This document shows positions 19,662 through 37,519 of a stretch of DNA of 64,000 nt, piece after piece. Numbering within the stretch: position 1 is the first letter of the stretch; every line of letters begins with the position of its first letter. The notes below the pieces were generated by a model. The model did not search any database. It was given only the letters and a program-made list of their open reading frames with translations, and had not been told where the DNA came from. The position numbers and the translations under genes are program-made. The DNA lies in the NCBI GenBank assembly GCA_019637635.1, contig JAHBVI010000004.1, positions 6,497 through 70,496 of the forward strand, in the 5' to 3' direction. The DNA is from Anaerolineae bacterium. Lineage in GTDB: Bacteria > Chloroflexota > Anaerolineae > Promineifilales > Promineifilaceae.

Positions 19662-19744
19662 GCTTCTCACCCTGCCAGACAGTTTCATCCTACCCGGCTG
19701 CCCGGCAGTATACACCATAAGAGACAAAGGCCGAAACCCCACCA

Positions 19745-19779
19745 CCGATAACCGATTACCGATTACGGATTACCGATTT
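19745..19779. repeat. heptamer tandem array (CCGATTA x5, variants)
   Basis: ccgataa ccgatta ccgatta cggatta ccgattt. Contains the stop codon of the BCCP gene (..EIGNP*). Confidence 0.9.
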
Positions 19780-20266
19780 CCACCAACACCTCATCCCGCG
19801 CTACCGTCTGCCCTGGCGTCACATGCACGGCCGTGACCACCCCACGCAACGGCGCTCGAATTTCGTTCTCCATCTTCATCGCTTCCAGCACCAGGATGGA
19901 ACTGCCCGCTTCCACGGCGTCGCCCACCTGCACCCGCATGTGCGTGATCAGGCCGGGAATGGGCGCTTTGACACGGCCGTCGCCGCTGCGGGGTCGGCTC
20001 ACCACTGCATCCAGGTCTCTAATCTCCAGCCGGTGCAGCCCGCTAAACGCCTTGATCCAGGTGAGATGGGGATCCATGACAAACTCATACGGCCGTTCAT
20101 CCACCACCAACCACTCCAACTCCCCATGCAACAGCGCCGCCTCCGGCAGCAGCACCTTCACCCGCTGCCCATCCACCTCCACCTCATAGCCCGACCCATT
20201 CGGCGACGGCAAATTCAACATTACATCATACGTGTGCCCGTCTATGGTGACTTGTAAGTTACTCAT
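19763..20266 (-). CDS. biotin carboxyl carrier protein of acyl-CoA carboxylase
   Basis: C-terminal biotinyl domain with EAMKMENEI (biotinyl-Lys in the AMKM motif). Confidence 0.8.
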   Translation of the reverse strand: MSNLQVTIDGHTYDVMLNLPSPNGSGYEVEVDGQRVKVLLPEAALLHGELEWLVVDERPYEFVMDPHLTWIKAFSGLHRLEIRDLDAVVSRPRSGDGRVKAPIPGLITHMRVQVGDAVEAGSSILVLEAMKMENEIRAPLRGVVTAVHVTPGQTVARDEVLVEIGNP

Positions 20267-20279
20267 AACGCCCTTGTTT

Positions 20280-20349
20280 CGTAACCCGTAATCCGTAAAC
20301 CGTAAACCGATTACGGATTACGCATCACGGATTACGGATTACCGATTCT
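20280..20349. repeat. inverted heptamer arrays (CGTAATC-type x4 then GGATTAC-type x6), hairpin-forming
   Basis: Ten consecutive 7-nt units read directly. The second half is the reverse complement of the first. Spans the BC/BCCP junction and supplies the BC stop codon (..RRIGNP*). Confidence 0.9.
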
Positions 20350-21813
20350 CCTGCTTTCCCGATGCCAACCCGTCGCCAACCGTTCCGGGGCCGCCGGGTC
20401 AAACTGCTGGTGCCGCCGGATATAGGTGATGGCGGCAATCACCGCCAGGTCGCGCAAATGGGGCGCGGCTGCGCCGTTTTCCAGGGCAGGTTCTTTGAGC
20501 GAGCCGGTGTGGTAACGGCCGTTCACAAACCCCTCCGCCTGTACAATCTGCTGCAATAACGGGATGTTCGTCGGAATGCCCGCCGCCGCAAAATCGGCCA
20601 ACCCCTGGCGCAGCCGGGCCATGCTGGCCACCCGATCCGGCCCCCAGGTTGTGAGTTTGGCAAAAAGCGGCGCATACGCCGCCGGTACCGGGCAACCACT
20701 ATAAGCATAGGTGTCTACGCGAATATCTGGCCCCGTTGGCAGCCGCAGCCGCGTTAACTTTCCCGGACTGGGCAAAAAGTGGCGCTGGGGGTCCTCGGCA
20801 TAAATACGGGCCAACATGGCCCAACCGCGCAACTGAACGTCCGCCTGCCGAAATGAGAGGGGTTCTCCCGCCGCGACGCGCAGTTGCTCTTGCACCAGGT
20901 CTACCCCGGCGCGCATCTCCGTCAGTGAATGTTCCACCTGGATGCGGGCTTTGATTTCGCTAAAGTAGAAACAGCCCTCATCCGTGACCAGGAATTCCAC
21001 CGAGCCGACATTTTGGTAGTGGAAAAGATGGGCAATGGCAACGGCCGTGTCACACAACTTCTGTCGTTGCGCTGGCGCCAGGCAAGGGGCGGGCGACTCT
21101 TCCACCACCTTCTGGTTGTGGTACATAATCGAGCCTTCTCGCTCGCCCAGGCAAACCAGGTTGCCGTACCGGTCGCCCAAAACCTGCACGCTAATCTGGT
21201 GAGCGGGCATGATCGCTTTTTCCAGATACACACGCAAATCGCTGTAGTCGGCCTGCGATTCCTGTCCCTGGCGAATGGCAGCCGCCAGCCACGTGGACGA
21301 CGGGACAAGACGAGAGCCACGCCCACGCCCGCCCTGGTATGACTTGATGACCAGCGGGTAGCCCATCATGTCGGCCGCTTGCTGCAATTCAATGGCATCC
21401 TCACGGCCGTAAGCCTCCGGCGAACTCTCTACCGTCAAAAAACCGGCCTCCCGCACCCGCGCCAGCGCCGCCAGCTTGTCCCGCGTCTGCTGCAAAATTT
21501 CCGGCGACGGCCCAATAAAGGTCAGCCCCGCATCCAGACACGCCTGGGCAAAATCCGCCTCCTCCGCTAAAAAACCATAGCCGGGATAAATACCGTCCAC
21601 CCCCCGCACCTGCGCCAATTGCACAATCGCCGGGACATCCATAAAAAAGTCCGGCGACTCCACACGCACACATTCATCCGCCAGCCGCACATGCAGCGAA
21701 TTAATATCGGAGGGATCGTAGACGGCCACGGCCGTGACCCCCATCTCCCGGCACGCCCGCACCGCCCGCACCGCAATTTCCCCCCGGTTGGCAATTAGAA
21801 TCTTGTTGAACAT
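20332..21813 (-). CDS. accC: biotin carboxylase subunit of acetyl/acyl-CoA carboxylase
   Basis: MFNKILIANRGEIAVRAVRACREMG N-terminus and ATP-grasp motifs. Start moved to ATG 21813; the listed extension lies in a repeat array. Confidence 0.85.
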   Translation of the reverse strand: MFNKILIANRGEIAVRAVRACREMGVTAVAVYDPSDINSLHVRLADECVRVESPDFFMDVPAIVQLAQVRGVDGIYPGYGFLAEEADFAQACLDAGLTFIGPSPEILQQTRDKLAALARVREAGFLTVESSPEAYGREDAIELQQAADMMGYPLVIKSYQGGRGRGSRLVPSSTWLAAAIRQGQESQADYSDLRVYLEKAIMPAHQISVQVLGDRYGNLVCLGEREGSIMYHNQKVVEESPAPCLAPAQRQKLCDTAVAIAHLFHYQNVGSVEFLVTDEGCFYFSEIKARIQVEHSLTEMRAGVDLVQEQLRVAAGEPLSFRQADVQLRGWAMLARIYAEDPQRHFLPSPGKLTRLRLPTGPDIRVDTYAYSGCPVPAAYAPLFAKLTTWGPDRVASMARLRQGLADFAAAGIPTNIPLLQQIVQAEGFVNGRYHTGSLKEPALENGAAAPHLRDLAVIAAITYIRRHQQFDPAAPERLATGWHRESRRIGNP

Positions 21814-21833
21814 CTCCACCTTCCTGAATAGGG

Positions 21834-21900
21834 TGGCAGGTTGCAGGTTGCAAGTTGCAGGTAAAAGCACTCACCTGCCACTTGCTACTTGCCACTTGCC
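21834..21900. repeat. inverted heptamer arrays (TTGCAGG x4 / ACTTGCC x4)
   Basis: tggcagg ttgcagg ttgcaag ttgcagg - 11-nt spacer - acctgcc acttgct acttgcc acttgcc. Lies at the CT/BC junction. Confidence 0.85.
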
Positions 21901-21907
21901 ACCCTCT

Positions 21908-23467
21908 CTACATCGGCGAAATCCCATGTTTGCGGGCCACGTGCCGCTCCCGTTTGGAGAGTGTCAGTTCCAGCGCCCGGATCAGGGTGCGGCGCGTATC
22001 GCGGGGCTGGATCACATCATCAATCAGCCCCCGCGCCGCGGCCACATAGGGATTGTTAAAGCGCGTCTCGTAATCTTCTACCAACTCCTGCCGTCTGGCA
22101 TCCGGGTCGGCCGCTTCCTGCACCTCTTTGCGGAAGAGAATGTTGACCGCCCCTTCCGCGCCCATCACCGCAATTTCGGCATTGGGCCAGGCGTAGAGCA
22201 GGTCGCCGCGTAACCCTTTGCTGCTCATCACACAGTACGCGCCGCCATAACTCTTGCGCAAAATGACCATCAGCTTGGGCACGGTAGCCTCACTGTAGGC
22301 GTAAATCAGCCGCGCTCCGTTGCGAATGATGCCGCCATACTCCTGGTCTTTGCCCGGCAAGAAGCCGGGAACATCTTGCAGGGTGATGATGGGCACGTTG
22401 TAGGCGTCGCAAATGCGGATGAAGTGGGTGGCTTTGATACTCGCCTTGATGTCAATGCAGCCCGCCAGCACCATCGGCTGGTTGGCGACGATGCCCACCA
22501 CATACCCATTGAGCCGGGCGAAACCCACCACCATGTTTTGCGCCCACAGTTGATGCACTTCAAAGAAACGGCCGTCATCCACCAAACTGGCAATCACCCG
22601 GCGCACCTCATACGGCTTGTGTGGGTCGGTAGGTACGATTTCTTCCAATTCCGGGCAGGGGCGGTGGGGGTCGTCGAGCGGCCGCATATACGGCGGATCA
22701 TCCTGGTTATTGCCGGGCAGGTAACTGAGCAGTTCCCGCACCCGCGCCAGGCACTCTTTATCGTCGCCGGTCAGAAAATGGCAGACGCCGCTCTCCTGGC
22801 TGTGCATCAGGCCGCCGCCCAACTCCTCAAACGTCACGTCTTCCTGCATCACCGCCTTCACCACCTGCGGCCCGGTGATGAACATGTAGCTCTTCTCCGT
22901 CATAAACACAAAATCCGTCAGCGCCGGAGAATAAACCGCCCCACCCGCGCACGGCCCCATGATGACGGAAATCTGGGGGATGACGCCGGACGCCTCACAG
23001 TTAGCGTCGAAAATTTTGGCGTATCCGCCCAGGCTGTCTACCCCTTCCTGGATGCGCGCCCCGCCGGAGTCGTTGATGGCGATAAACGGGCAGCCATACT
23101 GCAAGGCCATACGCATCGCTTTGGCAATTTTGTTGGCGTGCATCTCCCCCAACGAGCCGCCCATCACGCTGGCATCCTGAGACGCAGCCATGACGTGACG
23201 GCCGTTGACCAGCCCAAAACCGACCACCACCCCATCGCCATAACGTGACCCCTTACCACCCACATAGTTCTCATACCGGGGCAGCGCCAGGGAATCAATC
23301 TCCTCAAACGTGCCCGTATCAAACAGCAAATCCAGCCGCTCACGGGCCGTCAGCCGCCCTTTGGCGTGTTGGCTGGTGGTGTCCTTCTCCGTCCCCCGCG
23401 CCTGGCACTTCCGCTTATCCAATTCTTCCTTGTAGACCTGCATCTCTTTAATCATCTTCAACCTCAC
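21908..23467 (-). CDS. acyl-CoA carboxylase carboxyltransferase subunit (PccB/AccD5-like, fused beta-alpha CT)
   Basis: About 520 aa. Motifs include GRLTARERLDLL, GGARIQEG, GPCAGGAVYSPALTDF and GGAYCVM, typical of the propionyl/acetyl-CoA carboxylase beta chain. Confidence 0.85.
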   Translation of the reverse strand: MRLKMIKEMQVYKEELDKRKCQARGTEKDTTSQHAKGRLTARERLDLLFDTGTFEEIDSLALPRYENYVGGKGSRYGDGVVVGFGLVNGRHVMAASQDASVMGGSLGEMHANKIAKAMRMALQYGCPFIAINDSGGARIQEGVDSLGGYAKIFDANCEASGVIPQISVIMGPCAGGAVYSPALTDFVFMTEKSYMFITGPQVVKAVMQEDVTFEELGGGLMHSQESGVCHFLTGDDKECLARVRELLSYLPGNNQDDPPYMRPLDDPHRPCPELEEIVPTDPHKPYEVRRVIASLVDDGRFFEVHQLWAQNMVVGFARLNGYVVGIVANQPMVLAGCIDIKASIKATHFIRICDAYNVPIITLQDVPGFLPGKDQEYGGIIRNGARLIYAYSEATVPKLMVILRKSYGGAYCVMSSKGLRGDLLYAWPNAEIAVMGAEGAVNILFRKEVQEAADPDARRQELVEDYETRFNNPYVAAARGLIDDVIQPRDTRRTLIRALELTLSKRERHVARKHGISPM

Positions 23468-23471
23468 GACT

Positions 23472-23528
23472 ACAACGGATGGGGAAATGAGCGGATGAAG
23501 AAAATCCGTTCATTTCGCCGTCCGTTGT
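23472..23528. repeat. 57-nt imperfect nested palindrome at the PPTase/CT junction
   Basis: acaacggatgg..aaatgagcggat-gaagaaa-atccgttcattt..ccgtccgttgt. Outer and inner arms are complementary, with 1 mismatch each. Confidence 0.75.
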
Positions 23529-23530
23529 TG

Positions 23531-24205
23531 TCACCCCACCGCAATCGTCAACACAAACCCATCCTCCACCCGCCACCAGCCGGTTAAGGGGGGGGCAGGG
23601 CGGGGCAAACGGCCGTTATCACAGCGAATGGCAAAGGGCGTCCAGATTCCCGGCGGCTGGGCCACCGGCTCAATCAGGCAGCTTACGGCGCGGGTGTTCA
23701 CCGACAGCCCCAGGTGCAACGCTTTCAACACCGCTTCTTTGGCGCTCCACACGGCCGTTTCCCAAACCACCCGCTCCTGCCCCACCAGCCCATACCCCAG
23801 AGCAATCTCCGCCAGCGTAAAATACTCTTCGGCAAAGCCCACCGGGCGTGACTGGATCAATTCTATATCGGCCCCGATGGGAGCGTGTGCTCTTTCGGTG
23901 GCGGCCACAAAGGCACGGCCGTGTGCATGACTGATGGAAATGGAAAAGCGGTGATCGGTAATCGGTAATCGGTAATCGGGGACGCCATCCGCGTTGTTGG
24001 TGATCGTGATCATGTCCAGGGGCAGCGTCACGCCGTTCGTTTCCCAGATGACGGTTTGCAGCAGCCGCTTGGCCGTCCAGCGCCCCAGCAGCCAATCCGC
24101 GCGCCGTTTGTCCGTCTTCAACTCCTGAAACCGCGCCAATTCCGTCTCGGTCAAATAATCACATGCCGGAATCTCGTGGTGCGTTTGTGTCAACCAATGA
24201 ATCAT
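23531..24205 (-). CDS. Sfp-type 4'-phosphopantetheinyl transferase
   Basis: PPTase motifs IGADIE and WSAKEAVLKA. Size about 220 aa. Confidence 0.75.
   Translation of the reverse strand: MIHWLTQTHHEIPACDYLTETELARFQELKTDKRRADWLLGRWTAKRLLQTVIWETNGVTLPLDMITITNNADGVPDYRLPITDHRFSISISHAHGRAFVAATERAHAPIGADIELIQSRPVGFAEEYFTLAEIALGYGLVGQERVVWETAVWSAKEAVLKALHLGLSVNTRAVSCLIEPVAQPPGIWTPFAIRCDNGRLPRPAPPLTGWWRVEDGFVLTIAVG
23949..23979. repeat. heptamer array (CGGTAAT x4) inside the PPTase coding sequence
   Basis: cggtgat cggtaat cggtaat cggtaat. On the sense (-) strand it reads ATTACCG and encodes ..DYRLPITDHRF.. Confidence 0.9.
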
Positions 24206-24226
24206 GGTAATCAGTAATCGGTAATC
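24206..24226. repeat. heptamer array (GGTAATC x3) abutting the PPTase start codon
   Basis: ggtaatc agtaatc ggtaatc directly 5' of ATG 24205. Confidence 0.8.
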
Positions 24227-24276
24227 GTCTGTCGAGCAATAACCGGCATCATCGTTTTGAGAAACCCCTTCCCCCT

Positions 24277-24362
24277 GTCATTCCGAACGAAGTCTTCGGA
24301 GTGAGGAATCTCTCACCTGTACAAATGGGAGGGATTCCTCCTCGAAGACTCGTCGGAATGAC
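24277..24362. repeat. 86-nt imperfect inverted repeat (about 30-nt arms), REP/MITE-like hairpin
   Basis: gtcattccgaacgaagtcttcggagtgaggaatc ... gattcctcctcgaagactcgtcggaatgac. Intergenic between the KR-DH and PPTase genes. Confidence 0.7.
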
Positions 24363-24391
24363 ACGAGAAAGTTCACATTATTTTGTTAACG

Positions 24392-26959
24392 CTACAAAGT
24401 GACCTGGCCTGGCAATGAAACTGTTTTGTAGCCCGTCAGGGTCAGGTAAACAGCGCCTTCCGTGTCCACAACCTGAGCGTTGAACTCTTCGCCGCCGTTG
24501 ACAGCTTCCACAATGGCATACAGGCGACGGCCGTCCACCACCTCCCGCTCCTGCCGATAAACCGATACCGCGCCAATCGCCAGCGGCAGGGCCATCGTCT
24601 GCCGCTGCCGGATTTGCCACACACCGGCCGTCTGGAAGCACAGTTCAATCAGGCGCGGGGCCAACAGTTCCAGCGCATCCGCCGGATTCATGTTAGGCGG
24701 CAAATTCTCCGCCAGCAGCCCAATCGCCCGGCTGCCTTCCACCTGCACCGCTTCTAGCACCTGATACGCCGGGCCGTGGAAGTAGATGTCATAAATCGCC
24801 TCTTTGCCGATGTCCAGTGTAGCCGGTGGGGTGAAATCAACCGACGCCACCTCTGCTGGTTTACGACTCATGCACACTGTAGCTGTAAAGTGCAGTTTCT
24901 CCTGCAAACCTCCTTTCAATTCACGGCGAGAATGGAGGGCCGCATACACCAGCAGATCGTCGCCATCGGGCACGGCCGTACCGCGCAAATACAACGTCTG
25001 CGGTTCCATCCGGTAAAACTTAAAGGGAGCGTGGAACTGTTCGTTGAATACGGCCGTGACGTGATAATCCGGCGCGATGGTCTGGGCCAATTCCGCAAAC
25101 GCCTCCGTCCCCATCACCCCCGGCAGCAGCGGCGTCCCCTCCATGGCATGGTCATAGAGAAACGGTTGCTCCTTTGGGTCCAACACCGTTTCCACTTCCC
25201 ACCCGCCATACACCTTCGCCGCCGCCAAGCCACCAACCAACAAAAACTCCTCTGCGCCCCCGCGTCTCCGCGTTAAAATCCCGCCGCTTTCATCCCACTC
25301 ATCCACCAGCAAACCCAGTTTGCCGCCCACCAGCACCTCGCCGCCGCCTACCAGCAACTCCCGGCGTACAGTGGGAATCCCGGCAGCCGGTGGCAGCATC
25401 TCAATGCCCGCATACTCCATAATCTTGGGAATCGAGCCGCGTGTGGCCATGCCTATGCCGCCCCAGGCCGTCCAGTCAATGGCAATCGCCTTTGTCTCTG
25501 GCCGTGTCCGTTGCCGGCTGCTGGTGAGTTTGCACAGCAGGTCATTGGCCGCGCTGTAATCCGTCTGCCCGGCGTTGCCAAAACGGCCGGCTACCGAACT
25601 AAAGACCACCGTCGCCGCAACAGGCAAATCCTGGGCGGCGTGCAGCAGGCTGTAAAAGCCGTCCGCCTTGATGTCATACACCAGGTCAAACTGGGCGGCG
25701 TCTTTCTGGTTCAGCGCCTTGCTGATTTCAATGCCGCCGGCATGAACCAGCACGTCAATCCGGCCAAACTGCTGGCGGATTTCGGCCACGATCCCGGTCA
25801 GGGCCTCATGGTCGAGCAAATTGACGCTGCGATACACGGCCGTGCCGCCAACCTTTTCCACCGCCTCAATCGCGCTCAACGCCGCTTCCAACCGCTCCAC
25901 CGCTGCCAGCTTCTTCTCAATCATCACCGGCGTCGGCTTTTCACCCGCCACCTTTGTTTCTTCAATAAGCTGCTGCTTCAAGGCATCCTTGTCGGCGCGG
26001 AAAAGGGCAATTTGGGGATCGGCGCGGTCGGGTTCCGGCGTCAAGTCCAGCAGGTAGAACGTGCCGCCGCTGGCTGCGGCCAGGTCGGCCACAATGGCGC
26101 TGGTAATGCCACCCGCCGCCCCCGTCACCAGGAAAACCTGTTTGTCTGGCTGTGGCCGGTGTCCCCACCGAGCCACGTCGGGTGGCACGGTCTGAAGACC
26201 GGCCACAGCATCATAAGTTGCGGGTTGTTCCATCAAGGTGATGGTGTAACGGCCGTCCCGCCAATACCCCACCTCCACACAACCCGGATCCGCCAGCGTT
26301 TCGGCAATCAGAAGGTCGGCAAAAGCGGCCGTTTTGCGGCTGGCCTCAAAATCTACGGCCTTCACCAGGACGGACGGCCGTTCCCGTTTATACGCTTTGG
26401 TAAAGCCGGTGACGCCGCCGCCCAACGGAGCGATTGCCGGTTCCGGCCCATAGCCATGCAGCCCGCCCATTCGTGTGGCGGATACCAGGAACGCGCCCGG
26501 TTCGCACACCGCGTCATACAGCGCCCGCATGGTCACAGCCAGGTTTTTCACCCGCACCCGGTTCGCCTCCCGCCAGTCAGCCAGGGACATCGTCGCCAGA
26601 TCAGGCTCCACGTCCAGCGCGGGCAGCCAGTAGACACCCTGCACCGGCCCTTCGGCCAGCCAGGTTTGCGCCTGCGCTGCTACCGCTTCGGCAGCCAGGG
26701 CCACGTCCAGCAGCAGCACGGCCACGCCCAGCTTTTCCAGCTTTTTAACCAGCGCCTTACCCACGCCGCCCTCGTCCAGGGCCACCACCACGCGGCTGGC
26801 TTCGTTTAAGAGGACGCCGGTTGGTTTGCATTGGGTGAGCGACGGCCGTAAGGCGGGCATCGGTACGCGGCGGGGCATCGTGTCCGCATCGGCCAGGGTA
26901 TATTCCGGTTCAATTTGGGGAATCAGGGGTGGCGCAGTGGTCGTCTCCGGGGCGACCAC
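24392..26959 (-). CDS. polyketide/PUFA-synthase-type ketoreductase + PS-type dehydratase protein (pseudo-KR / KR / DH)
   Basis: Rossmann motif FLVTGAAGGITSAIV and KR catalytic YSAAND. DH motif LYDHAMEGTPLLPGVMGTEAF (HxxxGxxxxP). GTG start 12 nt after the megasynthase stop. Confidence 0.8.
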   Translation of the reverse strand: MVAPETTTAPPLIPQIEPEYTLADADTMPRRVPMPALRPSLTQCKPTGVLLNEASRVVVALDEGGVGKALVKKLEKLGVAVLLLDVALAAEAVAAQAQTWLAEGPVQGVYWLPALDVEPDLATMSLADWREANRVRVKNLAVTMRALYDAVCEPGAFLVSATRMGGLHGYGPEPAIAPLGGGVTGFTKAYKRERPSVLVKAVDFEASRKTAAFADLLIAETLADPGCVEVGYWRDGRYTITLMEQPATYDAVAGLQTVPPDVARWGHRPQPDKQVFLVTGAAGGITSAIVADLAAASGGTFYLLDLTPEPDRADPQIALFRADKDALKQQLIEETKVAGEKPTPVMIEKKLAAVERLEAALSAIEAVEKVGGTAVYRSVNLLDHEALTGIVAEIRQQFGRIDVLVHAGGIEISKALNQKDAAQFDLVYDIKADGFYSLLHAAQDLPVAATVVFSSVAGRFGNAGQTDYSAANDLLCKLTSSRQRTRPETKAIAIDWTAWGGIGMATRGSIPKIMEYAGIEMLPPAAGIPTVRRELLVGGGEVLVGGKLGLLVDEWDESGGILTRRRGGAEEFLLVGGLAAAKVYGGWEVETVLDPKEQPFLYDHAMEGTPLLPGVMGTEAFAELAQTIAPDYHVTAVFNEQFHAPFKFYRMEPQTLYLRGTAVPDGDDLLVYAALHSRRELKGGLQEKLHFTATVCMSRKPAEVASVDFTPPATLDIGKEAIYDIYFHGPAYQVLEAVQVEGSRAIGLLAENLPPNMNPADALELLAPRLIELCFQTAGVWQIRQRQTMALPLAIGAVSVYRQEREVVDGRRLYAIVEAVNGGEEFNAQVVDTEGAVYLTLTGYKTVSLPGQVTL

Positions 26960-26970
26960 CAGGCCACCCT

Positions 26971-29900
26971 CTAGGCTTTTAAATCCGACGGCTGCTCCAC
27001 AACAACTACCAGATCAGGCCGCATCTCCCGCACAAACCCCACCACCTTTGCCAGTGTGTTGTAGTCGCGCAGGCTCAGGTCGTCGCGGCGAGGGATGTCA
27101 AACTCTTGCCGGATCGCCAGGAACGTTTCTGCCTGTTTCACCGTGTCTACCCCTAAATCCGCTTCCAAATCCAAGTCCATTTCTAGCATGTCCGTCGGGT
27201 AGCCGGTTTGTTCGGCCACGATGGCCAGCACTTTGTCGGCGATGGGATCGGAGATTGGAGATTGGAGATTGGGAGATTGAGAGATTGGGGGGGCGACCTG
27301 CTCACTGCTCACTGCCTGCGGACGCTGCGTCTGCCGCTCACTTTTCACCAGATCGGGCCGCATCTCGCGCACAAACTCCACCACCTTCGCCAGCGTGTTG
27401 TAATCGCGCAGGCTCAGGTCATCGCGGCGGGGAATGTTGAACTCGGTACGAATCGCCAGGAACGTCTCCGCCTGTTTCACGGTGTCTACGCCCAAATCCG
27501 CTTCCAGGTCTAAATCCATTTCCAACATATCCGTCGGGTAGCCGGTCTGTTCGGCCACAATCGCCAGGATTTTGTCGGCAACGGGATCGGAGATTGGAGA
27601 TTGGAGAGTAGAGATTGGGAGATTGGGAGATTGAGAGATTAGCGGAGCGACTTGCTCACTGCTCACTGCCTGCGGACGCTGCGTCCGCCGCTCACTGTCC
27701 ACTTTCTGTGCGCCACCATTTGCCGGCACCGCTTCCACTTTCACGGGGGCGGGCTGTGGCGTCACGGCCGTCGGCTGATTATTCACCGGCCTCGGCTGCA
27801 CCTGAACTGACGCGGGCATAGGCGATGGTACGGCATACGGCTCACGGGCTACGGTAAACGGATCACGGATTACGGCATACGGATTACCGCCCCTCGTCCG
27901 CATTACCGGTTCCGTGCCATACTGCCAGGTGGAGGGACACGGCCGTTTACCCGGCGCACCCCTGGCTACAATGCGTAAATTCCGCTTTTCCACTTCCAGT
28001 TCCGCATAATCGTAGCCGCTGATGGCGTCCAGCCATTGCTGGTAACGCGGTTTGCTGTCCACCCGATCCAGCGCGCCGGGAATGCGCCGCGTCAGCGTGA
28101 GGGAAATTTGCGAACCAAAACCGGCGGCCAGATGCAGCGCGTACTGCACCGGATAACGCCCACCCCGGCTCAGGTTCAACTCGCCCAAATCGGGGTCAAC
28201 TTCTTTGTAATTGGGCACTGGCGGCACAATGCCGTGTTCCAGGATTTTGAGGGCGATCACATCTTCCACGCCCACGCCCATGGGATGGCCGGTGAACCCT
28301 TTGGTATTGGCCACCACAATCTCTTTGGCTGCTTCGCCAAAGGTTTGGCGCAGCGCCACTACTTCCGCCGAGGCCGAGCCGCCCCGCGCCGGGGTATACG
28401 TTTCGTGGGACATAAAGACCAACTGTGGCGCGATGGTGTAGCGATTCAGGCCAAAGCGGTATTCGGCAACAGTCATCAGGTCGTTCATCACCTGGGCAAT
28501 GTGATCCACGTCCAACCGCGAGCCATGAAAGGCGCTGTTGCGGGTTTCGCTGCTCAGTAGCTCCACAATGCCGCGCATCCCCCGCTCTTGCACCGCGTCT
28601 TCACTTTCCACCACCAGCGCACAGGCGCCCATGCCCAAGATGGTGCCATGCCGCCGTTTGTCAAAAGGCAGCGCGGCTTCTTCCACCCGGTCATCGGTAG
28701 CGGCTGCCCCCAGCGCCAGGAAACCGGCGCCAATCCATTCCAGCAGGTGGTCGCCGGTCACATCATCGGCAGCAATGACCAACACGCGGCGGCAACGGCC
28801 GTTCCTGATCCAATCCTCCGCTATGCCAATTGCCTGGGTGGTGCTGGCGCAGGCCGCATTCACCTGCGTATTGGGGCCGCGTGCGCCAATGTACTCGGCA
28901 AACTGGCTGTGCCCCATGGAGAGAATGCGGAAGATGAAGCGCCGGTCAAAGACATACGCCTCTCGCGCCAGCGTCTCACGCAGGTCATTGATGCGCCGCG
29001 TGATTTCCAGCAAGGTCTGGTTATCGGTGCAGGTTCGGCGCAGTTGATCCAGCATCTCCAACTGCTCGACGCGATTCTGGTAAACGTAGAAGCGTTCAAA
29101 ATCTTCCACAAACCGGTCACCGCCGGGGAAGGCGCTGGCAAAAATCACGCCCGTCTCGTCGCGCAATGACTCCGGCAGCATCCAACGCTGCGGCAGGTAA
29201 GAGCCATTGCTGGTATTTTTGTAGGTCATCACCAGGGGGATGCCCGCTTCGCGCAGGGCGTCCAGCCCGGCGGCAAAGGCCAGTTGCGTGGTCACATCCA
29301 GCGAATCCACCAGCTTTTGTGGCACGCCGTATTCGGCCGCCAGGTCAAAGGTTCCGGGACGGCCGGCCAGTTTGATCACGTCATCGCTGTTGTCAATGGG
29401 GGCAAAACTGCCACCGCCATTTTCGTCTTTGATCAGCCGGGTGATCCGCTTGCCCACCATCTTGCGCCGGAAACGTTCAGGGATCAGGTCTACAAACTGT
29501 TCACCCTGCAAAATGCGCCAGGCGTTGTCCGGGGCCATCACCGCCTTCTCCGCCCCCGGCAGCCCCAGCCCCGTGCCGCTAATGACGACGGAGCCGAGAG
29601 GGGGGTGGGCGCGGTTGTACGGCTGCGCCGAGATTGGAGATTGGAGATTGGAGATTGGGAGATTGGGAGATTGGAAGGCGTTCATTGGCTGCCCGGTTGT
29701 TTCCGGGGCTACGGCCGTAGCCATCCCGTTTGTTACTTTCATCACAGGTTCCTCCATTTGGTTAACTGAAGTAAGAGTTAGAGTCCCGGTTTTAATCTCT
29801 AATCTCCGATCTCCAATCTCTGTAACATAACCCGCCGCATACAATGCGCACAATGCCTGATTAAAAGCGGGCAGTTCGCCGGGTTTGGGATGGTTGGTCA

Positions 29901-32607
29901 TCAGGGCCAGCACATCGTTTTTGTCTTTAAATACATCGTTGGCAAAACCGCGCAGGGCGCGTTTGGGGCCAACTTCCACAAAGGTGCGCACACCAAAGTC
30001 ATAGAGCGTGTGCAGCCCTTTCACCCATTGCACGGTGGCGGCCACCTGTTGTTGCAGGTTGTCTTTGATGGCATTTACCGTTGTCGGGTAAAAATCACCC
30101 GTCACATTGGTCACAATGGGTAAGGTGGGCGGGGCGATGTGCAGCCGATCCAGCACCCGGCGCAGCGGCGCGCTGGCAGGGGCAATGATGCTGGTGTGGA
30201 AGGCGTGGCTGACGGGGATGATCATCGCCTGAAAGCCCGCTTCCTGGAAAAGGGTCACGGCCGTTTCCACCGCCGCACTCGCTCCGCCAATCACACATTG
30301 GCTGCTGCTGTTGATATTGGCCGGAATGACGTAACCGTCCACCTGCTTCAAGGTGGCCTCGATTACGTCATACGGGGCCAGGACGGCGGCCATCTTGCCG
30401 TTGTCGTCCAGCTTCAAATGAGCCATCTCGCCGCCCCGTGCCGCCGCCGCTTCCAGCGCATCGGCAAAGGGCATAATGCCGGCCACAATCAGCGCCGCAT
30501 ACTCACCCAATGAATGACCCATCACCACATCCGGGCTGAAACCAAACGATTCCAACAGCCGGTACATGGCAATGTCCATTGTCAGCATCGCCGGTTGGGT
30601 GATTTCCGTTTGCATCAGGTCAAAGGTGGCTTTGTTCACGGCGGCGTTATCGTTCGGGTCAACAAAAATGTAATCGGTCAGCGGTTGGCCCAAAATCGGC
30701 TTCATCACCGCATCCGCTTCGTCAAAAACGGCCTGCACTTCTGGATAGAGCGCGGCCAGTTCGCGGCCCATGTTCACATACTGGCTGCCCTGGCCGGGGA
30801 ACATGAAGGCAATCTTGCCTTCCGGTTTGCCTGCACCACGATAAATGCCCTGCGCCTCCATCGCTTTCCACGCCGGCGGCGAGTCAGAGACCATCACCTT
30901 CTGCGCCTTTTGCAGCCGATCCAGCAGTTCCACCTGATCGCCAAAATCAATAAACAGCCGCTCATTAGCGGCAATAACCATCGGTTCGGGCAGTTCTCGC
31001 GGCGGCGTCCAACCCGTCTCCACCCGACTGAGATATTGGTCTAGTTTCTCCTTCAATTCCTGCGGCGTCGCCGCACCAATGGCGGCAATGCCGCGTGGGG
31101 GAGATTGGAGATTGGAGATGGGAGATGGGGTTGAATCTCCAATCTCTACTCTCTGATCTCTCTTCTCCACCGCAAACACCTTCTTCGGCTGCGTCAGTTC
31201 ACCAGGGCGGTGTTCTTCCAACACCAGATGGAAATTGGTACCACCAAAGCCATAGGCGCTGACGCCGGCGCGGCGGGGTGTGCCGTTGGGTGGTTCCCAG
31301 GCACGGCCGTCGTGCAGCAAATAAAACGGCGTCTGGCTGAAATCCACATAGGAATTAGGCGGGTTAGCATTCAGCGTCGGCGGCAGGATTTTGTGGTGCA
31401 AGGCCATCACGGTTTTGAACATGCCGGCTGCGCCCGCGCCGGCCTTCAGGTGGCCGATGTTGCTCTTGACCGACCCCAGGCCGATGCTGTTTGGCCTGGC
31501 ATAACCAAATACGGCTGCCAGACTCTCCACTTCGGCCACGTCCCCCACCGGGGTGCTGGTGCCGTGCGCTTCCACCAGGGTGGCTGTGGCCGGGTCCAGT
31601 CCCGCCGCTTCCCAGGCGCGCTGCATGGCTAACTGCTGCCCGATGGGGTTGGGCGCGGTGATGCCCTTACCTTTGCCGTCACTGGCCCCGCCCACACCAC
31701 GAATGACGGCGTAAATTTTGTCGCCGTCCCGTTCTGCGTCTTCCAGCCGTTTCAGCAGGAAGAGGGCCGCCCCTTCACCCATGACAAAACCATCGGCGCC
31801 ATCACCAAACGGCCGTGTGCCCGTCGCACTCAACGCCCCAATTTTGCAGAACTTCACAAACGGCCCAATGCCCATATTGCGGTCTACGCCGCCGGTGATC
31901 ACCGCGTCTACCTTGTGTTCAAAAAGCAGTTCCAGCGCCGCTTCCACGGCGGCAAAGCTGGAGGCACAGGCGGCGTCGGTGATGAAGTTGGGGCCGCGCA
32001 AATTGAGCATGTTGGCGATACGGCCGCTGACGATGTTGGGCAGTTCGCCGGGCATGGAGTCTTCGGAAATGGGTGGGTACTGCTCGTCAATGTGGTCATG
32101 CCAGCCGGCCAGGATGGCCTGGCGGGTGGGCGTGGGCAGGGCGGCAAATTCGGACACGGCCGTCAGCGCCCGCGCATAGTTGGGGAAGACGATCCGTTCG
32201 TTGGTGGTGTAGTGCAGTTCCCCGCCCATAGCCGTGCCGATGATAGTGGCGGTGCGTTCGGTGTCTAACGGCCGTACCGGATGCCCATAATCGGCCAGCA
32301 CGTCGGCGGCAATGGTCAGCGCCCACTGCTGCCCCTCGTCCATGGCCGCCGCCACTTTGGGCGGCATCCGAAAACGCTTCCAATCAAACTGAAAGCCCCG
32401 CACCCAGCCGCCAATTTTGGTGTATGTCTTGTCTGGCGCTTTAGGGTCGGGGTCGTAATAATCGGCAATAGACCACCGCTCCGGCGGCGTTTCCGTGATG
32501 CTGTATCGTTTGTTGAGGATGTTTTGCCAGAATGTGGCTGCGTTCAGCGCCTCCGGCATAATGGCCCCCACCCCCACAATGGCAATGGCTCGTTCACTTG
32601 AGTCCAT
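26971..32607 (-). CDS. type I FAS/PKS megasynthase: KS - AT(malonyl) - KS(2, with insertion) - ACP-like - ACP-like
   Basis: KS1: DAACASS / EAHGTST / [11 protein letters not shown]: FPGQGSQ, GHSLGEY, HAFH. KS2: NAACASTT / SHETYT / TGHPMG. Two carrier domains with [11 protein letters not shown]. Start set to ATG 32607 (MDSSER) with GGAGG 6 nt upstream. Confidence 0.85.
27251..27287. repeat. GAGATTG heptamer array in the inter-ACP linker (coding)
   Basis: gagattg x3 then ggagattg agagattg. The sense strand encodes ..[11 protein letters not shown].. Confidence 0.9.
27589..27641. repeat. GAGATTG heptamer array in the pre-ACP1 linker (coding)
   Basis: ggagattggagattggagagtagagattgggagattgggagattgagagatta. 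Encodes ..[18 protein letters not shown].. Confidence 0.9.
27827..27889. repeat. nine-unit NNNACGG heptamer array inside the megasynthase coding sequence
   Basis: ggtacgg catacgg ctcacgg gctacgg taaacgg atcacgg attacgg catacgg attaccg. Encodes [21 protein letters not shown]. Confidence 0.85.
29630..29674. repeat. GAGATTG heptamer array in the AT-KS2 linker (coding)
   Basis: gagattg x4 plus ggagattg x2. Encodes ..[18 protein letters not shown].. Confidence 0.9.
29793..29820. repeat. opposite-orientation (CAATCTC-type) array 120 nt from the 29630 array, also coding
   Basis: taatctc taatctc cgatctc caatctc. Encodes ..[10 protein letters not shown].. Could pair with 29630-29674 in the mRNA. Confidence 0.85.
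31101..31168. repeat. inverted heptamer arrays (hairpin) in the KS1-AT linker (coding)
   Basis: gagattg gagattg gagatgg gagatgg ggttg aatctcc aatctct actctct gatctct cttctcc. Encodes ..[24 protein letters not shown].. Confidence 0.9.
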
Positions 32608-32625
32608 GAGATACCTCCGCAAAAA

Positions 32626-32698
32626 GGAGATCGGAGATTAGAGATTGGAGATTGGCGTTCGCTGGACGACCAATCTCTAATCTTCAATCTCTAATCTC
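32626..32698. repeat. inverted heptamer arrays at the ACAD/megasynthase junction
   Basis: ggagatc ggagatt agagatt ggagatt gg - 14-nt loop - ccaatct ctaatct tcaatct ctaatctc. Overlaps the ACAD stop codon. Confidence 0.9.
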
Positions 32699-34349
32699 AA
32701 CGAAATGCTTTATTCAACTGCTCTGCCGCAAAATCCATATCCCCCACCAGCCCCTCCTGCACGGCATAAATGCCGGGCAGGTCGAGGGATTGGGCTAATG
32801 CCGGATCAGTCTGCCCCGCGCCGATGGCCCAGCGCAATCCTTCGGTGGCAACTTTGAGGGCGGCGTCACGGCCGTGAATCCGGCTGAGCGCCTGCCGGGT
32901 GGGTACGTCCAGGTGGATGGCTTCGGTGGGTTTGTCGGCTACCCGTTCGGCGAAGATGGCGGCCGTTTCCGCGTAGGCGATGAGTTCACCCAGGCGGAAC
33001 AGCACATGCTGGCTGCGCGTCAGCCGATCCAGGCGACAGCGTTCCAAAATAACGGCCAACGCCCGCATGGCCAGGGCCGCATAATTGGCCCCATTCTCCG
33101 GCTGCTCCTGGTGGATGAGCGAGAGGCGGTTGGCCCACTCCTTGTAATAATCGCCGCGTGATTTCAGATGCAACTGCCAGCGGTCGCGGGCAATCGTCCA
33201 CTCCATAATCTCCGACGTGCCTTCGTAAATGGTGGTGATGCGCACATCGCGCTTGATTTTTTCCACCAGATACTCTTTGGTGTAACCGTATCCGCCGTGG
33301 GCCTGGATAGCATCTTCGGCCGCTTTGTTGCCTGCTTCGGTAGCCATGTATTTGGCCACCGCCCCTTCCGTTTGCAGCCCTTCTTCGCCGCTGTCCAGCC
33401 GTTCGGCCACCCATTCAATGTAGCTGCGGGCCGCTTCCAGCCGGGCGGCGTTGGGCACAATCAGCTTGTGGGTGTAGCCTTGTTTCTGGCTGAGGGGTGC
33501 GCCGCCCTGGATGCGCTCTTGTGAATAGCGAATGGCGCGTTTGAGGGCCTCCCAGCCCGCGCCCAGCCCAAACGCGCCCACCATGAGACGGGTGTAGCCA
33601 AAAACGGCCTGCGCCTGGGCCAATCCCTGCCCTTCTTGCAGACCCACCAGCCGGTCGGCGGGCACGTAGACGTTATCGAGGAAGAGAGCGGCCGTGTTGC
33701 TGGCGCGGATGCCATGTTTGTCTTCCGGTTTGCCGCGTGTGAACCCTTCGCTGTCCCGGTCTACGATGAACCAGCTTGGCCCACCGGGGGCCAGCGCCAG
33801 GATGGTGTACAGATCGGCCACACCGCCGTTGCTGATCCACTGTTTCTGCCCGGAGATGCGGTAGCCGGTGACGACGCCATTTTCAATAACAGGTTCGGCT
33901 TTGGTGGTCATGGCGGCTAAATCGGAACCGGCCTGCGGTTCGGTAGCGCCATAGGCCATGAGCAGTGCTTCTTCAGCGATACGGCCGTACCAAACCTTCT
34001 TCTGCTCTTCTGTCGCCCCCACACTGATAGGGTCGGAGCCGAGAAAGGTAGCCAGGACGCCGGTAGCCACACCCAGGTCAATGGCGGCCATCAATTCGGC
34101 CACGCGGTAAATGTCATACGCGCCGCCGCCCAGCCCATCATATGCTTCGGGGATGAAGAGCAGGTGCAGCCCCAGAGACATGGGGTCATACAGTTCTTGC
34201 AAAACTTCGTGGGGGAATTCGTCGTTGTGGTCTAGTTTGAGTAGATAATCGGGGGTGAGTTTTTTGTCAGCATACTTTTTCAGGGTGTCCAGGATCATGT
34301 CGCGGGTTTCTTTGTCCAGGCCGACGGCCGTTTCTTCCATCTTTAACAT
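32697..34349 (-). CDS. acyl-CoA/acyl-ACP dehydrogenase-family flavoprotein with an approximately 150-aa C-terminal extension
   Basis: ACAD motifs ([34 protein letters not shown]). 550 aa versus about 380-400 for canonical ACADs. Confidence 0.8.
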
Positions 34350-34757: not shown

Positions 34758-35825
34758 ATGGCTAAAATGACAACTGCTTTAGTTTCCCGTTTTGTGTCCC
34801 CCCAGGTCAGGCAAAAACCCCTCGTCAGTTTGATTGTGCCTACGCTCAATGAAGAGCGCAATCTCCCCCAACTTTTTGCTTCAATCCCTGACATGGTGGA
34901 TGAGGTGGTGTTGGTTGACGGCCGTTCCACCGACCGCACCGTGGCATTGGCCAAAGAATTACGCCCAGACATCGTCGTTGTCCACCAGAAAGGCAAAGGC
35001 AAGGGCAACGCGCTGCGCCAGGGTTTTGAAGCCGCCAGCGGCGAGATCATCGTGATGATAGACGCCGATGGCTCTACCAACCCCGCCGAAATCCCCAACT
35101 TTGTGGGCGCTTTGTTAGCCGGCGCCGATTTTGCCAAAGGCTCTCGTTTCATGCAGGGTGGTGGCACATCCGACATGGAACCGCATCGGTATCTGGGCAA
35201 TCAGTTTTTTGTCTGGACGGTGCGCCTCCTGTTTGGTGGCAAATATACCGACCTTTGCTATGGCTACAACGCTTTCTGGACCTGGACACTGCCGCTGTTA
35301 AACCTCAATGGCGATGGTTTTGAAATCGAGACGATGATGAACGTGCGGGCGCTGCAAGCCGGCCTGCGTGTGGCCGAAGTGCCCAGCTTTGAAAACCGGC
35401 GTTTTATGGGCCTTTCTAACTTGAATGCTTTTCGGGATGGATTCCGCGTTTTGGGCACCATTTTTAAGGAATGGCTCAATAATCCCGGTCTGCGCGCCGT
35501 GAAAAAACATGAAAATTCGGTCGCCCAGGAAACCTTTGAAGAAGCCTTCCACGCCCTGCTGGAAGATACAAACGAATTTGTGAAAATGAGCCACCAGTTG
35601 CCCAATGACCGGTTAAAGCATTTGGCTGCCAAACTGCTCGTTCGCTTCGACGCCCTCATGTCCACCGAGATGAACTGCGCCGTCTGCCACGAACTGCAAA
35701 CGCGCTATGCCGAACATTACCGGGACATTTACGCCAACTACTTGCTCTCGTATATCCAGAAGGACAAGGGTGGGGCGGCGCCACTCCCTCAGCCCGTTTT
35801 CCAAACGGCGCCTTTGTCCCGCTAA
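34758..35825 (+). CDS. GT2-family glycosyltransferase (dolichol/polyprenol-phosphate hexosyltransferase-like) with C-terminal extension
   Basis: VSLIVPTLNEE..., DGRSTDRT, and DADG (DxD) motifs typical of DPM1/GtrB-like GT2. Confidence 0.75.
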   Translation: MAKMTTALVSRFVSPQVRQKPLVSLIVPTLNEERNLPQLFASIPDMVDEVVLVDGRSTDRTVALAKELRPDIVVVHQKGKGKGNALRQGFEAASGEIIVMIDADGSTNPAEIPNFVGALLAGADFAKGSRFMQGGGTSDMEPHRYLGNQFFVWTVRLLFGGKYTDLCYGYNAFWTWTLPLLNLNGDGFEIETMMNVRALQAGLRVAEVPSFENRRFMGLSNLNAFRDGFRVLGTIFKEWLNNPGLRAVKKHENSVAQETFEEAFHALLEDTNEFVKMSHQLPNDRLKHLAAKLLVRFDALMSTEMNCAVCHELQTRYAEHYRDIYANYLLSYIQKDKGGAAPLPQPVFQTAPLSR

Positions 35826-35869
35826 CCAATACTTCTGCCTCAGAATCAGGAATTGAATAATTTGTATAC

Positions 35870-35917
35870 GATGGGAGATTAGAGATTGGCAATTCGCCCA
35901 GGCTCTAATCTCCCATC
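35870..35917. terminator. hairpin built from GAGATT-type units after the GT2 gene
   Basis: gatgggagattagag - 18-nt loop - ctctaatctcccatc. Perfect 15-bp stem, 45 nt after the stop codon. Confidence 0.5.
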
Positions 35918-35956
35918 CTGGCTACAACCATTATTTGATTCATCTCTTCACTTCCA

Positions 35957-37519
35957 TTGATGATGAATAATAGAAACCTTCCGGCAAATGCCTATCAAAT
36001 TTTGCTTATTGAAGACGACGTAAGCGCCTCCCGATTAATTTCGGCGATGTTGGAACGAGGGGGGTACACCGCCCTTATCGCCAATTCGGGCAATGAGGGC
36101 ATCACCTTAGCTCACCAAAAGCGGCCTGATTTAATTTTGTGCGACGTGATGATGCCCGACATCACCGGGCTGGACGTCTTGCGCGCCCTGCAGAAACAAT
36201 CTGACACGGCCACAATTCCCTTTATTTTCCTGACGGCCCTGGCCAGACAGGAAGATATGCGGGTGGGCATGGAATTGGGGGCAGACGATTACCTGACCAA
36301 ACCGATACATACAGACGTACTGCTCAATGCGGTTGGCAGCCGCCTTAAACGGCACCAGCAATTGCAGACGGACCGGTTAGCCCATTTTACACAGCGGCTG
36401 GTGCTGTCACAGGAACACCAGCAGCAGCAGATGGCTTCTATGCTGGATGACAAGCTCAACCAATCGCTGCGCAGCCTGCAATTTGTCTTGAACATGTTGG
36501 CAGCGCCCGCACACGAAGACGCTTCTTTGTACAACGGGGCAAAGGAGATGTTGGGGGAATTAATTCTACAAGTGGAGGGGATGGCCCAGGAAATGCATCC
36601 GACGATTCTGGCGCGCCTGGGGTTAGCGCCAACGCTCCGTTGGCTCTCCGAACAATACGAGTTGGCCATTGAACTGGATATGCCGTCAGTGGCTTACCAG
36701 TTTGAGCCGAGGGTGAAGGTGTGTGTATTTCGCCTGGTGCAAGAAGCACTAAACAATATCCAACGTCACGCCCAAACGGATCATGCTAAAATTTCGCTGA
36801 ATTACGTAGCGCCGTACCTGGAGGTACGCATTGAAGATAAAGGGACGGGGTTTGACCTGGAGCGCACCTTACAATCAAGCCAGAGCATGGGTTTGCAATA
36901 TATGCATGGATTGGTGGCCTGGGTGAATGGCGAACTGCATGTCACATCCGGGCCAGATGAGGGCACGGCCGTTTATGCGCTGCTGCCTCAAGCCAATGCC
37001 GTGCCCATCAACACCTCGCCCGTTTCACCGGATTTGCTGCGCCTGGCCGGCCGTACCCGACCAATAGAACCAACGGAAGACACGGCCGTAACCGTCAAGA
37101 TATTACTGGCTATTGAACAACCCTTACAGTTACAGGGGATGTACAAGTTATTGGCGCGCAATCCCCACTTTGAGGTAGTCGGCGAAATTCAGGATTTGAC
37201 CCAGGTTGCGGACGCCATAGACACATACCAACCACAGTTGCTTATCATCAATCCGCTCACCGAGGGCAAAAGCCAGGCAGAGGTATTACAATCCATCATC
37301 GCCGTGCGTCCGGGCACGGCCGTGTTGGTCATCAGCACCGCCACCCATGAAGAATATGTACGCGCCGCTTTTGAGAGTGGTGTGCTTGGCTATATCCCCA
37401 ACACGGCCACCATTACCGATTTGCACACCGCCATCATGCGCGTCGCCCGCAATCAATACTACGTCAGCCCTGGCCTGTCATTTGATCTGGCGCAGTGGCA
37501 AGAAGCACAGGCAGTCTGA
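35957..37519 (+). CDS. hybrid REC - HisKA_3/HATPase_c histidine kinase - C-terminal pseudo-receiver
   Basis: N-terminal REC (LLIEDD, LILCDVMMPD, FLTA, DDYLTKP). His box QEMHPTILARLGL, N box EALNNIQRHA, G box DKGTGF. C-terminal NarL-like REC fold with Asn at the phospho-acceptor position (LLIINP). Confidence 0.7.
   Translation: MMMNNRNLPANAYQILLIEDDVSASRLISAMLERGGYTALIANSGNEGITLAHQKRPDLILCDVMMPDITGLDVLRALQKQSDTATIPFIFLTALARQEDMRVGMELGADDYLTKPIHTDVLLNAVGSRLKRHQQLQTDRLAHFTQRLVLSQEHQQQQMASMLDDKLNQSLRSLQFVLNMLAAPAHEDASLYNGAKEMLGELILQVEGMAQEMHPTILARLGLAPTLRWLSEQYELAIELDMPSVAYQFEPRVKVCVFRLVQEALNNIQRHAQTDHAKISLNYVAPYLEVRIEDKGTGFDLERTLQSSQSMGLQYMHGLVAWVNGELHVTSGPDEGTAVYALLPQANAVPINTSPVSPDLLRLAGRTRPIEPTEDTAVTVKILLAIEQPLQLQGMYKLLARNPHFEVVGEIQDLTQVADAIDTYQPQLLIINPLTEGKSQAEVLQSIIAVRPGTAVLVISTATHEEYVRAAFESGVLGYIPNTATITDLHTAIMRVARNQYYVSPGLSFDLAQWQEAQAV

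Follow-up and report, generated by a model that had tools for sequence, protein, structure and literature searches.

The window considered here, a stretch of 64,000 nucleotides from contig JAHBVI010000004.1 (about 58% GC), carries numerous short tandem arrays of seven-nucleotide units, most of them between genes and some translated within open reading frames (ORFs). Judging from protein and synteny relationships, its host is a member of the Ardenticatenaceae/Promineifilaceae, Chloroflexota of activated sludge: every named relative of its PfaA-like synthase is a Chloroflexota metagenome-assembled genome (MAG), as are all 23 syntenic loci, and the sequencing runs that contain the organism are sludge metagenomes. 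These affiliations led to the rejection of a cyanobacterium with STRRs as the host. The gene names proposed in an initial annotation, for the operon genes below as well as for paaABC, a ChlI/MoxR-like ATPase, a GT4 protein, a Wzy_C protein and an epimerase, agree with the Pfam matches. The minus strand harbors, in the 19763-34349 region, a secondary-lipid synthase operon whose genes are identified by Pfam:

32697-34349, minus strand: acyl-CoA dehydrogenase (ACAD)
26971-32622, minus strand: PfaA-like KS-AT-KS-like-ACP-ACP protein (PKS), 1883 amino acids
24392-26959, minus strand: KR-DH protein, 855 amino acids
23531-24205, minus strand: Sfp-type PPTase
19763-23467, minus strand: carboxyltransferase (CT), biotin carboxylase (BC) and biotin carboxyl carrier protein (BCCP)

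Tandem Repeats Finder (TRF) detects about 40 arrays of period 7 or 8 in the window. A strict period scan retains 20 arrays at period 7, 6 at period 8 and none at periods 4-6 and 10-12, and shuffled sequence yields no strict period-7 array: the heptamer arrays are real and well above chance. Period 7 is also dominant in the 463 kb formed by the window and the related loci, for which TRF returns 186 rows. Array density in the window (41 arrays in 64 kb) is 4.2/kb in non-coding DNA, against 0.31/kb in coding DNA. Three heptamer families dominate and are common to 7-10 genomes, down to ~65% protein identity, and most families are connected to one another by single-base steps. The arrays display the traits of heptanucleotide simple sequence repeats (SSRs) of the LSSR/STRR type: tandem repetition of at least three units far above chance, many dispersed and predominantly intergenic loci, and unit numbers that differ at the same site between relatives. 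The distribution along the window is uneven: period-7 arrays are absent from 1-17000 and 35000-52000, and nearly all are located in 17-35 kb and 52-63 kb. The array-poor stretches contain plus-strand operons whose genes overlap or abut.

Short-read assemblers break at the arrays and Logan contigs terminate there, as might be expected of sequencing or assembly artefacts, or of broken genes. Against this, contigs from the independent metagenome runs X1 (115x) and X2 span 29630-29821 and 31099-31129 gap-free, with array lengths equal to those of the window; the ORF is intact, with domains flanking every array; and six related MAGs exhibit arrays at matching sites. The gap-free contigs and the same-site arrays establish that the in-ORF arrays are not assembly artefacts, and this explanation, along with the frame errors that the initial annotation had named as a possible refutation, can be set aside with near certainty. 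The depth jumps 20-50-fold at GAGATTG arrays in runs X1-X4, so this family is present in many copies. Neither variants of plus or minus 7 nt nor frame-shifted ones were found among the X1-X4 contigs, which drop rare variants. RNA reads from one study (1-8x) reveal minus-strand transcription, including the region of the PPTase array, and are too thin to map read-through or 3' ends at the hairpins.

The synthase arrays are all located between Pfam domains of one intact ORF and fall in four regions: the KS-AT linker, the post-AT linker, the stretch from the second KS-like domain to ACP1, and the ACP1-ACP2 linker. GAGATTG arrays had been proposed in four megasynthase linkers. The peptides cited for them are present (aa 498-508, 934-944, 983-998 and 1661-1680), but the inventory was incomplete, as there are five GAGATTG-family arrays, plus three of other families. 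From the N-terminal to the C-terminal end of the protein, the array features are:

31099-31160, minus strand: complete inverted pair within the KS-AT linker (dG -25.4, z -6.9)
29793-29821, minus strand: post-AT linker array in the GAGATTG sense, the sole in-ORF copy in that sense
29630-29675, minus strand: CAATCTC-sense array of the post-AT linker, made of four 7-mers and then two 8-mers
27829-27887, minus strand: CGTAATC-family array in the TAA-bearing sense, with a 21-nt superperiod, its in-frame stops removed by variant units
27585-27669, minus strand: linker preceding ACP1, an AVSSEQ array followed by a CAATCTC-sense array, a duplicate of the ACP2 linker
27246-27315, minus strand: linker preceding ACP2, a TGAGCAG-sense array (AVSSEQ) followed by a CAATCTC-sense array

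Comparison of the synthase with eleven orthologues (75-92% identity) reveals nearly invariant domains and four linker stretches that vary in length and sequence in almost every one. The relatives harbor 7-residue repeats of their own at these sites (SPITDNR x4, SSEQLAV x3-4, SGQYSVI x3, VIGNQSS x2). At the post-AT linker site, the family is GAGATTG in the window, CAGTKAG in five relatives and CGGTWAT in L001; at 27829-27887, L002 and L017 are shorter by exactly 21 nt. These different repeats at the same sites in close relatives constitute a natural experiment on linker sequence tolerance.

The synthase is split at 26959-26973, where a plain TAG is followed by 11 nt and a GTG start. Many relatives possess one fused protein of ~2900 amino acids, and the KS-AT-ACP / KR-DH split is also observed in the closest relatives. 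The plain composition of this junction rules out an array as the cause of the split.

Translated arrays are also found in two other proteins, the PPTase and the Wzy_C protein:

23949-23979, minus strand: Sfp-type PPTase, CCGATTA x4.4 array encoding PDYRLPITDHR within a variable loop
61555-61603, minus strand: two arrays (RQVAGGRWRVARITHYA) in another hypervariable loop of the Wzy_C protein
61819-61912, minus strand: inverted pair in the Wzy_C ORF (AVTRDPYSVNRLRITDYRSPITDYRLRFTFYV); it occupies a hypervariable loop that links transmembrane helices, and the arm that comes first is in the TAA-bearing sense

The peptides reported earlier for these two proteins were both retrieved, PDYRLPITDHR in the PPTase and RLRITDYRSPITDYRL at 61835-61885 in Wzy. 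In the PPTase loop, the window and five relatives have CCGATTA x4, and L004 has CCAATTG x4 of equal length, which indicates that all units changed together; more distant PPTase orthologues have a non-repetitive loop of other lengths. Among 50 orthologues, the loops that contain the two Wzy array segments are hypervariable. Over a 57-92% identity range, the array peptides are lineage-specific and variable in length and sequence, as the initial annotation had anticipated, and its broader proposal that repeat arrays remodel linkers, loops and termini is borne out by the hypervariable, heptad-periodic segments of the synthase, PPTase and Wzy, and by altered BC and BCCP C-termini. Within ORFs, arrays survive solely in linkers between domains, in loops between helices and at termini. 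A simple mutational process thus writes low-complexity peptide into the linkers of a polyunsaturated fatty acid (PUFA)-synthase-like protein, a PPTase loop, Wzy loops and several C-termini. To note, the trmD ORF (tRNA m1G37 methyltransferase) contains a translated 8-nt array at 48853-48892 (TCACCCCC, ~4-5 units), so that an essential housekeeping enzyme too carries a translated short-unit array.

As 7 is not a multiple of 3, the gain or loss of one unit would shift the frame and could toggle a gene, and heptamer repeats do drive phase variation in Haemophilus (PMC8262952). One of the carriers, Wzy, is moreover a surface-polysaccharide gene. That the arrays are contingency loci of this type is nonetheless very unlikely: the arrays within ORFs are short, with a mean of 4.4 units, and interrupted, every length difference between orthologues within ORFs is 21 nt or another multiple of 3 in the DNA alignments, the X1 and X2 contigs reproduce the lengths of the window with no frame-shifted variant in X1-X4, and a lipid megasynthase and its PPTase are among the carriers.

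The initial annotation accounted for the sense in which arrays are read by their stop content. Its codon arithmetic, by which three units make seven codons because 7 and 3 are coprime, is correct by computation, and either sense of each array reads as a 7-residue repeat. Its stop contents are also correct: GAGATTG and CAATCTC hold no stop, nor does ATTACCG, while CGGTAAT carries TAA. Stops are absent from both strands in 62% of random heptamers of this composition, and the openness of GAGATTG in six frames is therefore unremarkable. The statement that coding copies are always in the ATTACCG sense proved false, as the TAA-bearing CGTAATC sense is the coding one at 27829-27887 and, in Wzy, at 61882-61912 (AVTRDPYSVNR). 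Nor is it supported that stop-freeness decides which sense is tolerated. Over the window and 23 related loci, counted without correction for shared ancestry, 27 of the 90 in-ORF period-7 arrays have a stop in their coding-sense consensus, and for families with a stop on one strand only, the open sense is used 22 times and the stop sense 20 times. The GAGATTG family, although open on both strands, is still read 18 to 1 in the CAATCTC sense (QSPISNL). The CAGTGAG family is read 18 to 1 in its TGA-bearing sense (AVSSEQL), the single exception being probably intergenic, and the CGGTAAT family 9 to 5 in the open versus the stop sense. The favored senses encode small, polar, Pro/Ser/Gln-rich peptides and the avoided ones EIGDWRL and LTAHCSL; the favored sense is repeated at several different linkers, in genomes down to ~65% identity. 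This strong bias of in-ORF orientation follows the encoded peptide and not stop-freeness.

How a stop-bearing sense can be read through is apparent from six example arrays, in which the stop triplet falls out of frame 31 times and in frame never. The would-be in-frame triplets are mutated to TTA, TTG, TAT or TTT, with every third unit altered, which results in a 21-nt superperiod. Stop-sense arrays therefore survive in ORFs because the unit with the would-be in-frame stop is mutated. It follows from logic alone, and is no finding, that an ORF cannot accommodate a pure long array with stops in all frames. The appealing stop-free rule is corrected accordingly: orientation in ORFs follows the peptide, and stop senses are rescued by 21-nt patching.

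The stop-sense/open-sense logic of the initial annotation has already been published for the TAACTGA direct repeats, heptamers that occur in marine Beggiatoaceae and in some Cyanobacteria and Bacteroidetes (MacGregor 2015, PMC4679880). Their forward sense holds stops in all three frames and overlaps ORF ends only (13 cases), and the reverse sense is found within ORFs, where it encodes LSVISYQ on the periphery of the protein or in between modules (PMC4679880). The Chloroflexota arrays share with them tandem 7-nt units, a mostly intergenic location and translated 7-residue repeats, and the 7-nt steps of TAACTGA strain differences are a further likeness (PMC4679880). They differ in other respects: TAACTGA is one dominant heptamer, in direct repeats (one inverted case) just upstream of starts, with no in-ORF stop-sense arrays (PMC4679880), whereas in this other phylum several families occur, mostly as inverted hairpin pairs at stop codons, along with 21-nt-patched stop-sense arrays. 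Unlike TAACTGA, the ORF-interior arrays are not restricted to the stop-free sense; like TAACTGA, arrays at ORF 3' ends are mostly in the stop-bearing sense.

At these gene ends, the association is pronounced. A stop codon lies inside an array, or at most 8 nt from one, in 9 of the 48 window genes versus 1.5 expected (p = 2e-5), and 17 of 21 arrays at gene 3' ends, in the window and related loci, present their stop-bearing sense. Stop-bearing units are over-represented in arrays located outside ORF interiors, of which only 27/93 are open on both strands versus 48% expected. The stops ascribed to arrays earlier were all located. Those of BC (RIGNP), BCCP (EIGNP) and the GT4 gene (QLTVDN) are in arrays read in the stop-bearing sense, and the TAA of the ChlI-like gene is inside an 8-mer array. 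The paaB TAG (REIGD) is likewise present, although it is made by a variant unit, GAGATTA-G, and not by the consensus. Two of these arrays stand as follows, the others belonging to inverted pairs:

19744-19778, minus strand: CGGTAAT-sense array with the BCCP stop (..LVEIGNP), abutting the start of the downstream Uma2-family gene
58869-58902, minus strand: CAATTGW array with the GT4 stop (..QLTVDN)

The unit core of the GT4-stop array, CAATTG, is a palindrome, so that this single array can self-pair without a separate inverted partner. Distant orthologues terminate in ..RRLPE (BC) and ..EI[SAQK] (BCCP), and those of the clade of the window in ..RRIGNP, ..RRVGG, ..EIGNP, ..EIRDS or ..EIGNT; the array thus supplies the BC and BCCP stop plus 1-3 extra residues. 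At the other end of genes, the longest-ORF starts of BC (21813-21870), paaC (52792-52830) and GT4 (60027-60075) pass through stop-free arrays, so 5' ORF calls can be inflated. The sequences and the alignment of orthologues suggest true starts downstream, at MFNKILIANRGE for BC, the M in ..IHNMTP.. for paaC and MKIGID for GT4. In practical terms, short-read assemblies break at the arrays, the BC, paaC and GT4 starts are probably over-called, and linker alignments can be misled.

The commonest arrangement is a pair of neighboring arrays inverted relative to each other. Such pairs number 37 in the window and related loci, with dG of -21 to -55; the intergenic pairs of the window have fold z-scores of -6.6 to -14 and are located in short spacers between consecutive operon genes. 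Those of the window are listed here without strand:

20280-20347: CGTAAAC x4 / GATTACG x5, BC–BCCP spacer, holding the BC stop (..RRIGNP); dG -39.7, z -7.0
21832-21902: GGTTGCA / CACTTGC, from the CT stop to the probable BC start (MFNKILIANRGE); dG -48.4, z -8.7
32626-32698: GAGATTR pair, from the ACAD stop to the PKS start, with the ACAD TGA at its edge; dG -34.9, z -6.8
52763-52821: near-perfect GAGATTG pair, paaB–paaC, the paaB TAG coming from a variant unit; dG -46.5, z -14
55315-55363: 8-mer pair GTAATTGR / AATTACSC, in which the ChlI/MoxR-like ATPase gene has its TAA
60027-60094: GAGATTG pair between a GtrA-like gene and GT4, the probable GT4 start (MKIGID) abutting the 3' arm
62372-62455: GGAGATT / TAATCTCT, from the epimerase stop to the Wzy start, the ATG abutting the 3' arm; dG -46, z -11.6

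In 33 of the 37 pairs, whichever the strand, the purine-rich arm is on the 5' side. The stop-richer arm precedes the other in 23 pairs and follows it in 4. These two descriptions, stop-rich first and G/purine-rich first, disagree in only 7 pairs, split 3 versus 4, and are therefore not separable; the stop-free GAGATTG family displays the same chirality as the other pairs. Eight inverted pairs lie inside ORFs, including those of the KS-AT linker in the window and of the Wzy loop. Complete pairs are also observed at the synthase linkers of relatives, in L004 (3498-3575), L015 (9281-9356) and L006 (5510-5586), made of the families GGAGCAG/CTGCTCC and AAGGTGAC/GTCACCTT, making in-ORF hairpins a clade-wide feature.

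DNA alignments reveal that the hairpin is retained at orthologous spacers despite changes of heptamer family. The ACAD|PKS spacer holds GAGATTR in two genomes, AGCAGTR in four and GTAATCAG in one. The CT|BC spacer contains, depending on the genome, GGCAAGT, GAGATTG or nothing, L017 being without an array there. The BC|BCCP spacer of L001 is 28 nt longer than that of the window, with the same family. Judged on sequence, the array hairpins do not look like intrinsic (Rho-independent) terminators: a T-run follows only 1 of the 7 window hairpins (ACAD|PKS, TTTT(T)), and a consensus scan for terminators and promoters finds no excess and does not pick up the arrays, its loop-size limit excluding array hairpins. 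Over the whole window, Rfam returns no match at the gathering score and a tRNA scan finds nothing.

A literature search combining Chloroflexi and heptanucleotide repeats retrieved no paper. The kind of element is already known, while the phylum is new, no earlier description in Chloroflexota having been found. An older precedent is that of the cyanobacterial STRR (short tandemly repeated repetitive) sequences, described reportedly by Mazel et al. in 1990 (the Calothrix heptanucleotides of PMC4692102) and by Jackman and Mulligan in 1995. These, too, reportedly form several dispersed, mostly intergenic heptamer families per genome in filamentous multicellular bacteria, though in another phylum and with other units. 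Closer in arrangement are the heptameric SSRs GGGAATC of Xanthomonas and GGGGA(T/C)T of Nostoc, located close behind the upstream ORF (mean 28 nt) and forming 70-75 'convergent' pairs with the G-rich array first (Rehm 2015, PMC4692102). As in the Chloroflexota, they are genome-wide and mainly intergenic, with the same chirality and with conserved sites at which length and sequence vary, and their unit resembles the GGAGATT of the window (PMC4692102). In contrast, they comprise G-runs, form G-quadruplexes and hold no stops, whereas most of the present families are without GGG runs, and linker translation is not part of that analysis (PMC4692102). The present arrays thus extend heptamer SSR biology to the Chloroflexota and add another example of the 'G-rich arm first' chirality. 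They stand apart by the coexistence of several families, the location of the hairpin pairs at stop codons and not upstream of starts, the clade-wide translation in megasynthase linkers and the 21-nt rescue of stop-sense arrays.

The hairpins might be functional modules under selection, combining stops in several frames on the 5' arm with an RNA hairpin. Such a module would provide a clean end of translation, guard the upstream mRNA from 3' exonucleases and permit coupling where the next start abuts the stem. The conservation of the hairpin through family changes, the strong fold z-scores, the 9 genes with a stop inside the 5' arm or next to it, the contact of the Wzy and GT4 starts with the 3' arm, the excess of pairs with the stop-rich arm first and the enrichment of non-interior arrays for stop-bearing units all point in this direction. 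Conversely, the RNA depth gives no transcript-end or expression support, the T-run and terminator scan results are negative but for one hairpin, and the empty CT|BC spacer of L017 indicates that the element is dispensable there. Besides, the same chirality is displayed by the stop-free GAGATTG family and by the stop-free GGGAATC pairs of Xanthomonas (PMC4692102). This explanation, which is compatible with turnover of the arrays by slippage, is possible but less probable.

Another potential origin of the pairs is insertion as units, also into linker-coding DNA, by mobile palindromic elements of the REP or MITE type. The complete KS-AT linker pair of the window is missing in the 91%-identical relative L015, arrays exist in many copies, a limited family repertoire is common to several genomes, and an identical array of ~44 nt is found at two loci. 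The latter concerns 29630-29675, in an ORF, and 62372-62416, between genes, whose common substructure is (GGAGATT)x4 followed by (GGGAGATT)x2; the arrays at 27246 and 27585 exhibit a similar order, 7-mers then 8-mers. This shared 7-mer/8-mer substructure hints at copying between arrays, not independent slippage. The REP/BIME sequences of enterobacteria are many-copy intergenic palindromes in operons that stabilize the upstream mRNA, and in their copy number and location inside operons the Chloroflexota pairs resemble them. REPs, however, are single imperfect palindromes (~35 nt) whose sequence is conserved and which come with a RAYT transposase, and are neither tandem heptamers nor translated. 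Inspection of the flanks of the window GAGATTG hairpins revealed no shared conserved termini or target duplications, and no transposase is found among the Pfam matches of the window. Since, in addition, unit numbers and loops differ at every copy and the families merge into one another via single-base steps, an origin in mobile elements seems improbable.

Taken together, the arrays are probably best described as heptanucleotide SSRs of the STRR/LSSR type, abundant and clade-wide in filamentous activated-sludge Chloroflexota and governed by slippage turnover and selection on the protein. They would arise and turn over via slipped-strand mispairing and concerted homogenization, which would explain both the differences in unit number and the swaps of whole families at orthologous sites. 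Mrazek (2007, cited in both PMC4679880 and PMC4692102) proposed slippage at 7-nt units to explain the heptamer excess of bacteria. At the protein level, purifying selection would set where, and in which sense, arrays persist, and protein remodeling would mostly be a tolerated by-product and not an adaptation.

Several observations weigh against this interpretation. No slippage event has been seen directly and the contigs display no within-population length heterogeneity. The sharing of the three dominant families among the 7-10 genomes, and the recurrence of the 7-mer/8-mer substructure in dispersed arrays, are more readily explained by copying or selection than by independent slippage. A function or a directed mechanism, and not pure neutrality, is suggested by the constant chirality and by the hairpins kept through family swaps, and the counts are uncorrected for shared ancestry. 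A joint alternative, which we consider unlikely, is that the heptamer hairpins are an actively maintained, selected feature of this filamentous clade. A small shared heptamer repertoire may then be copied or regenerated as purine-first palindromes, and bidirectional 'stop plus hairpin' modules may set operon translational coupling and mRNA stability. The hairpins in megasynthase linkers may likewise be mRNA pause sites at domain boundaries, protein remodeling may be partly adaptive, and the chirality shared with Xanthomonas may result from a common array-generating mechanism.

A few neighboring genes and ORFs deserve mention. The ORF of 330 amino acids at 53334-54326 (minus strand) has no Pfam match, overlaps the 3' end of paaC antisense and includes an array-derived stretch; it is probably not a gene. 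Two STAND-type NTPase genes are located at 12825-15284 and 57589-58701, one HTH-AAA-TPR (nSTAND1) and one nSTAND1/2. The Uma2-family gene at 19071-19745 (PF05685, putative endonuclease) has its start inside the BCCP-stop array. The Uma2 family is expanded in cyanobacteria too, another heptamer-rich phylum. Among the relatives, this gene follows BCCP only in the closest ones, L003, L004, L015 and L017.

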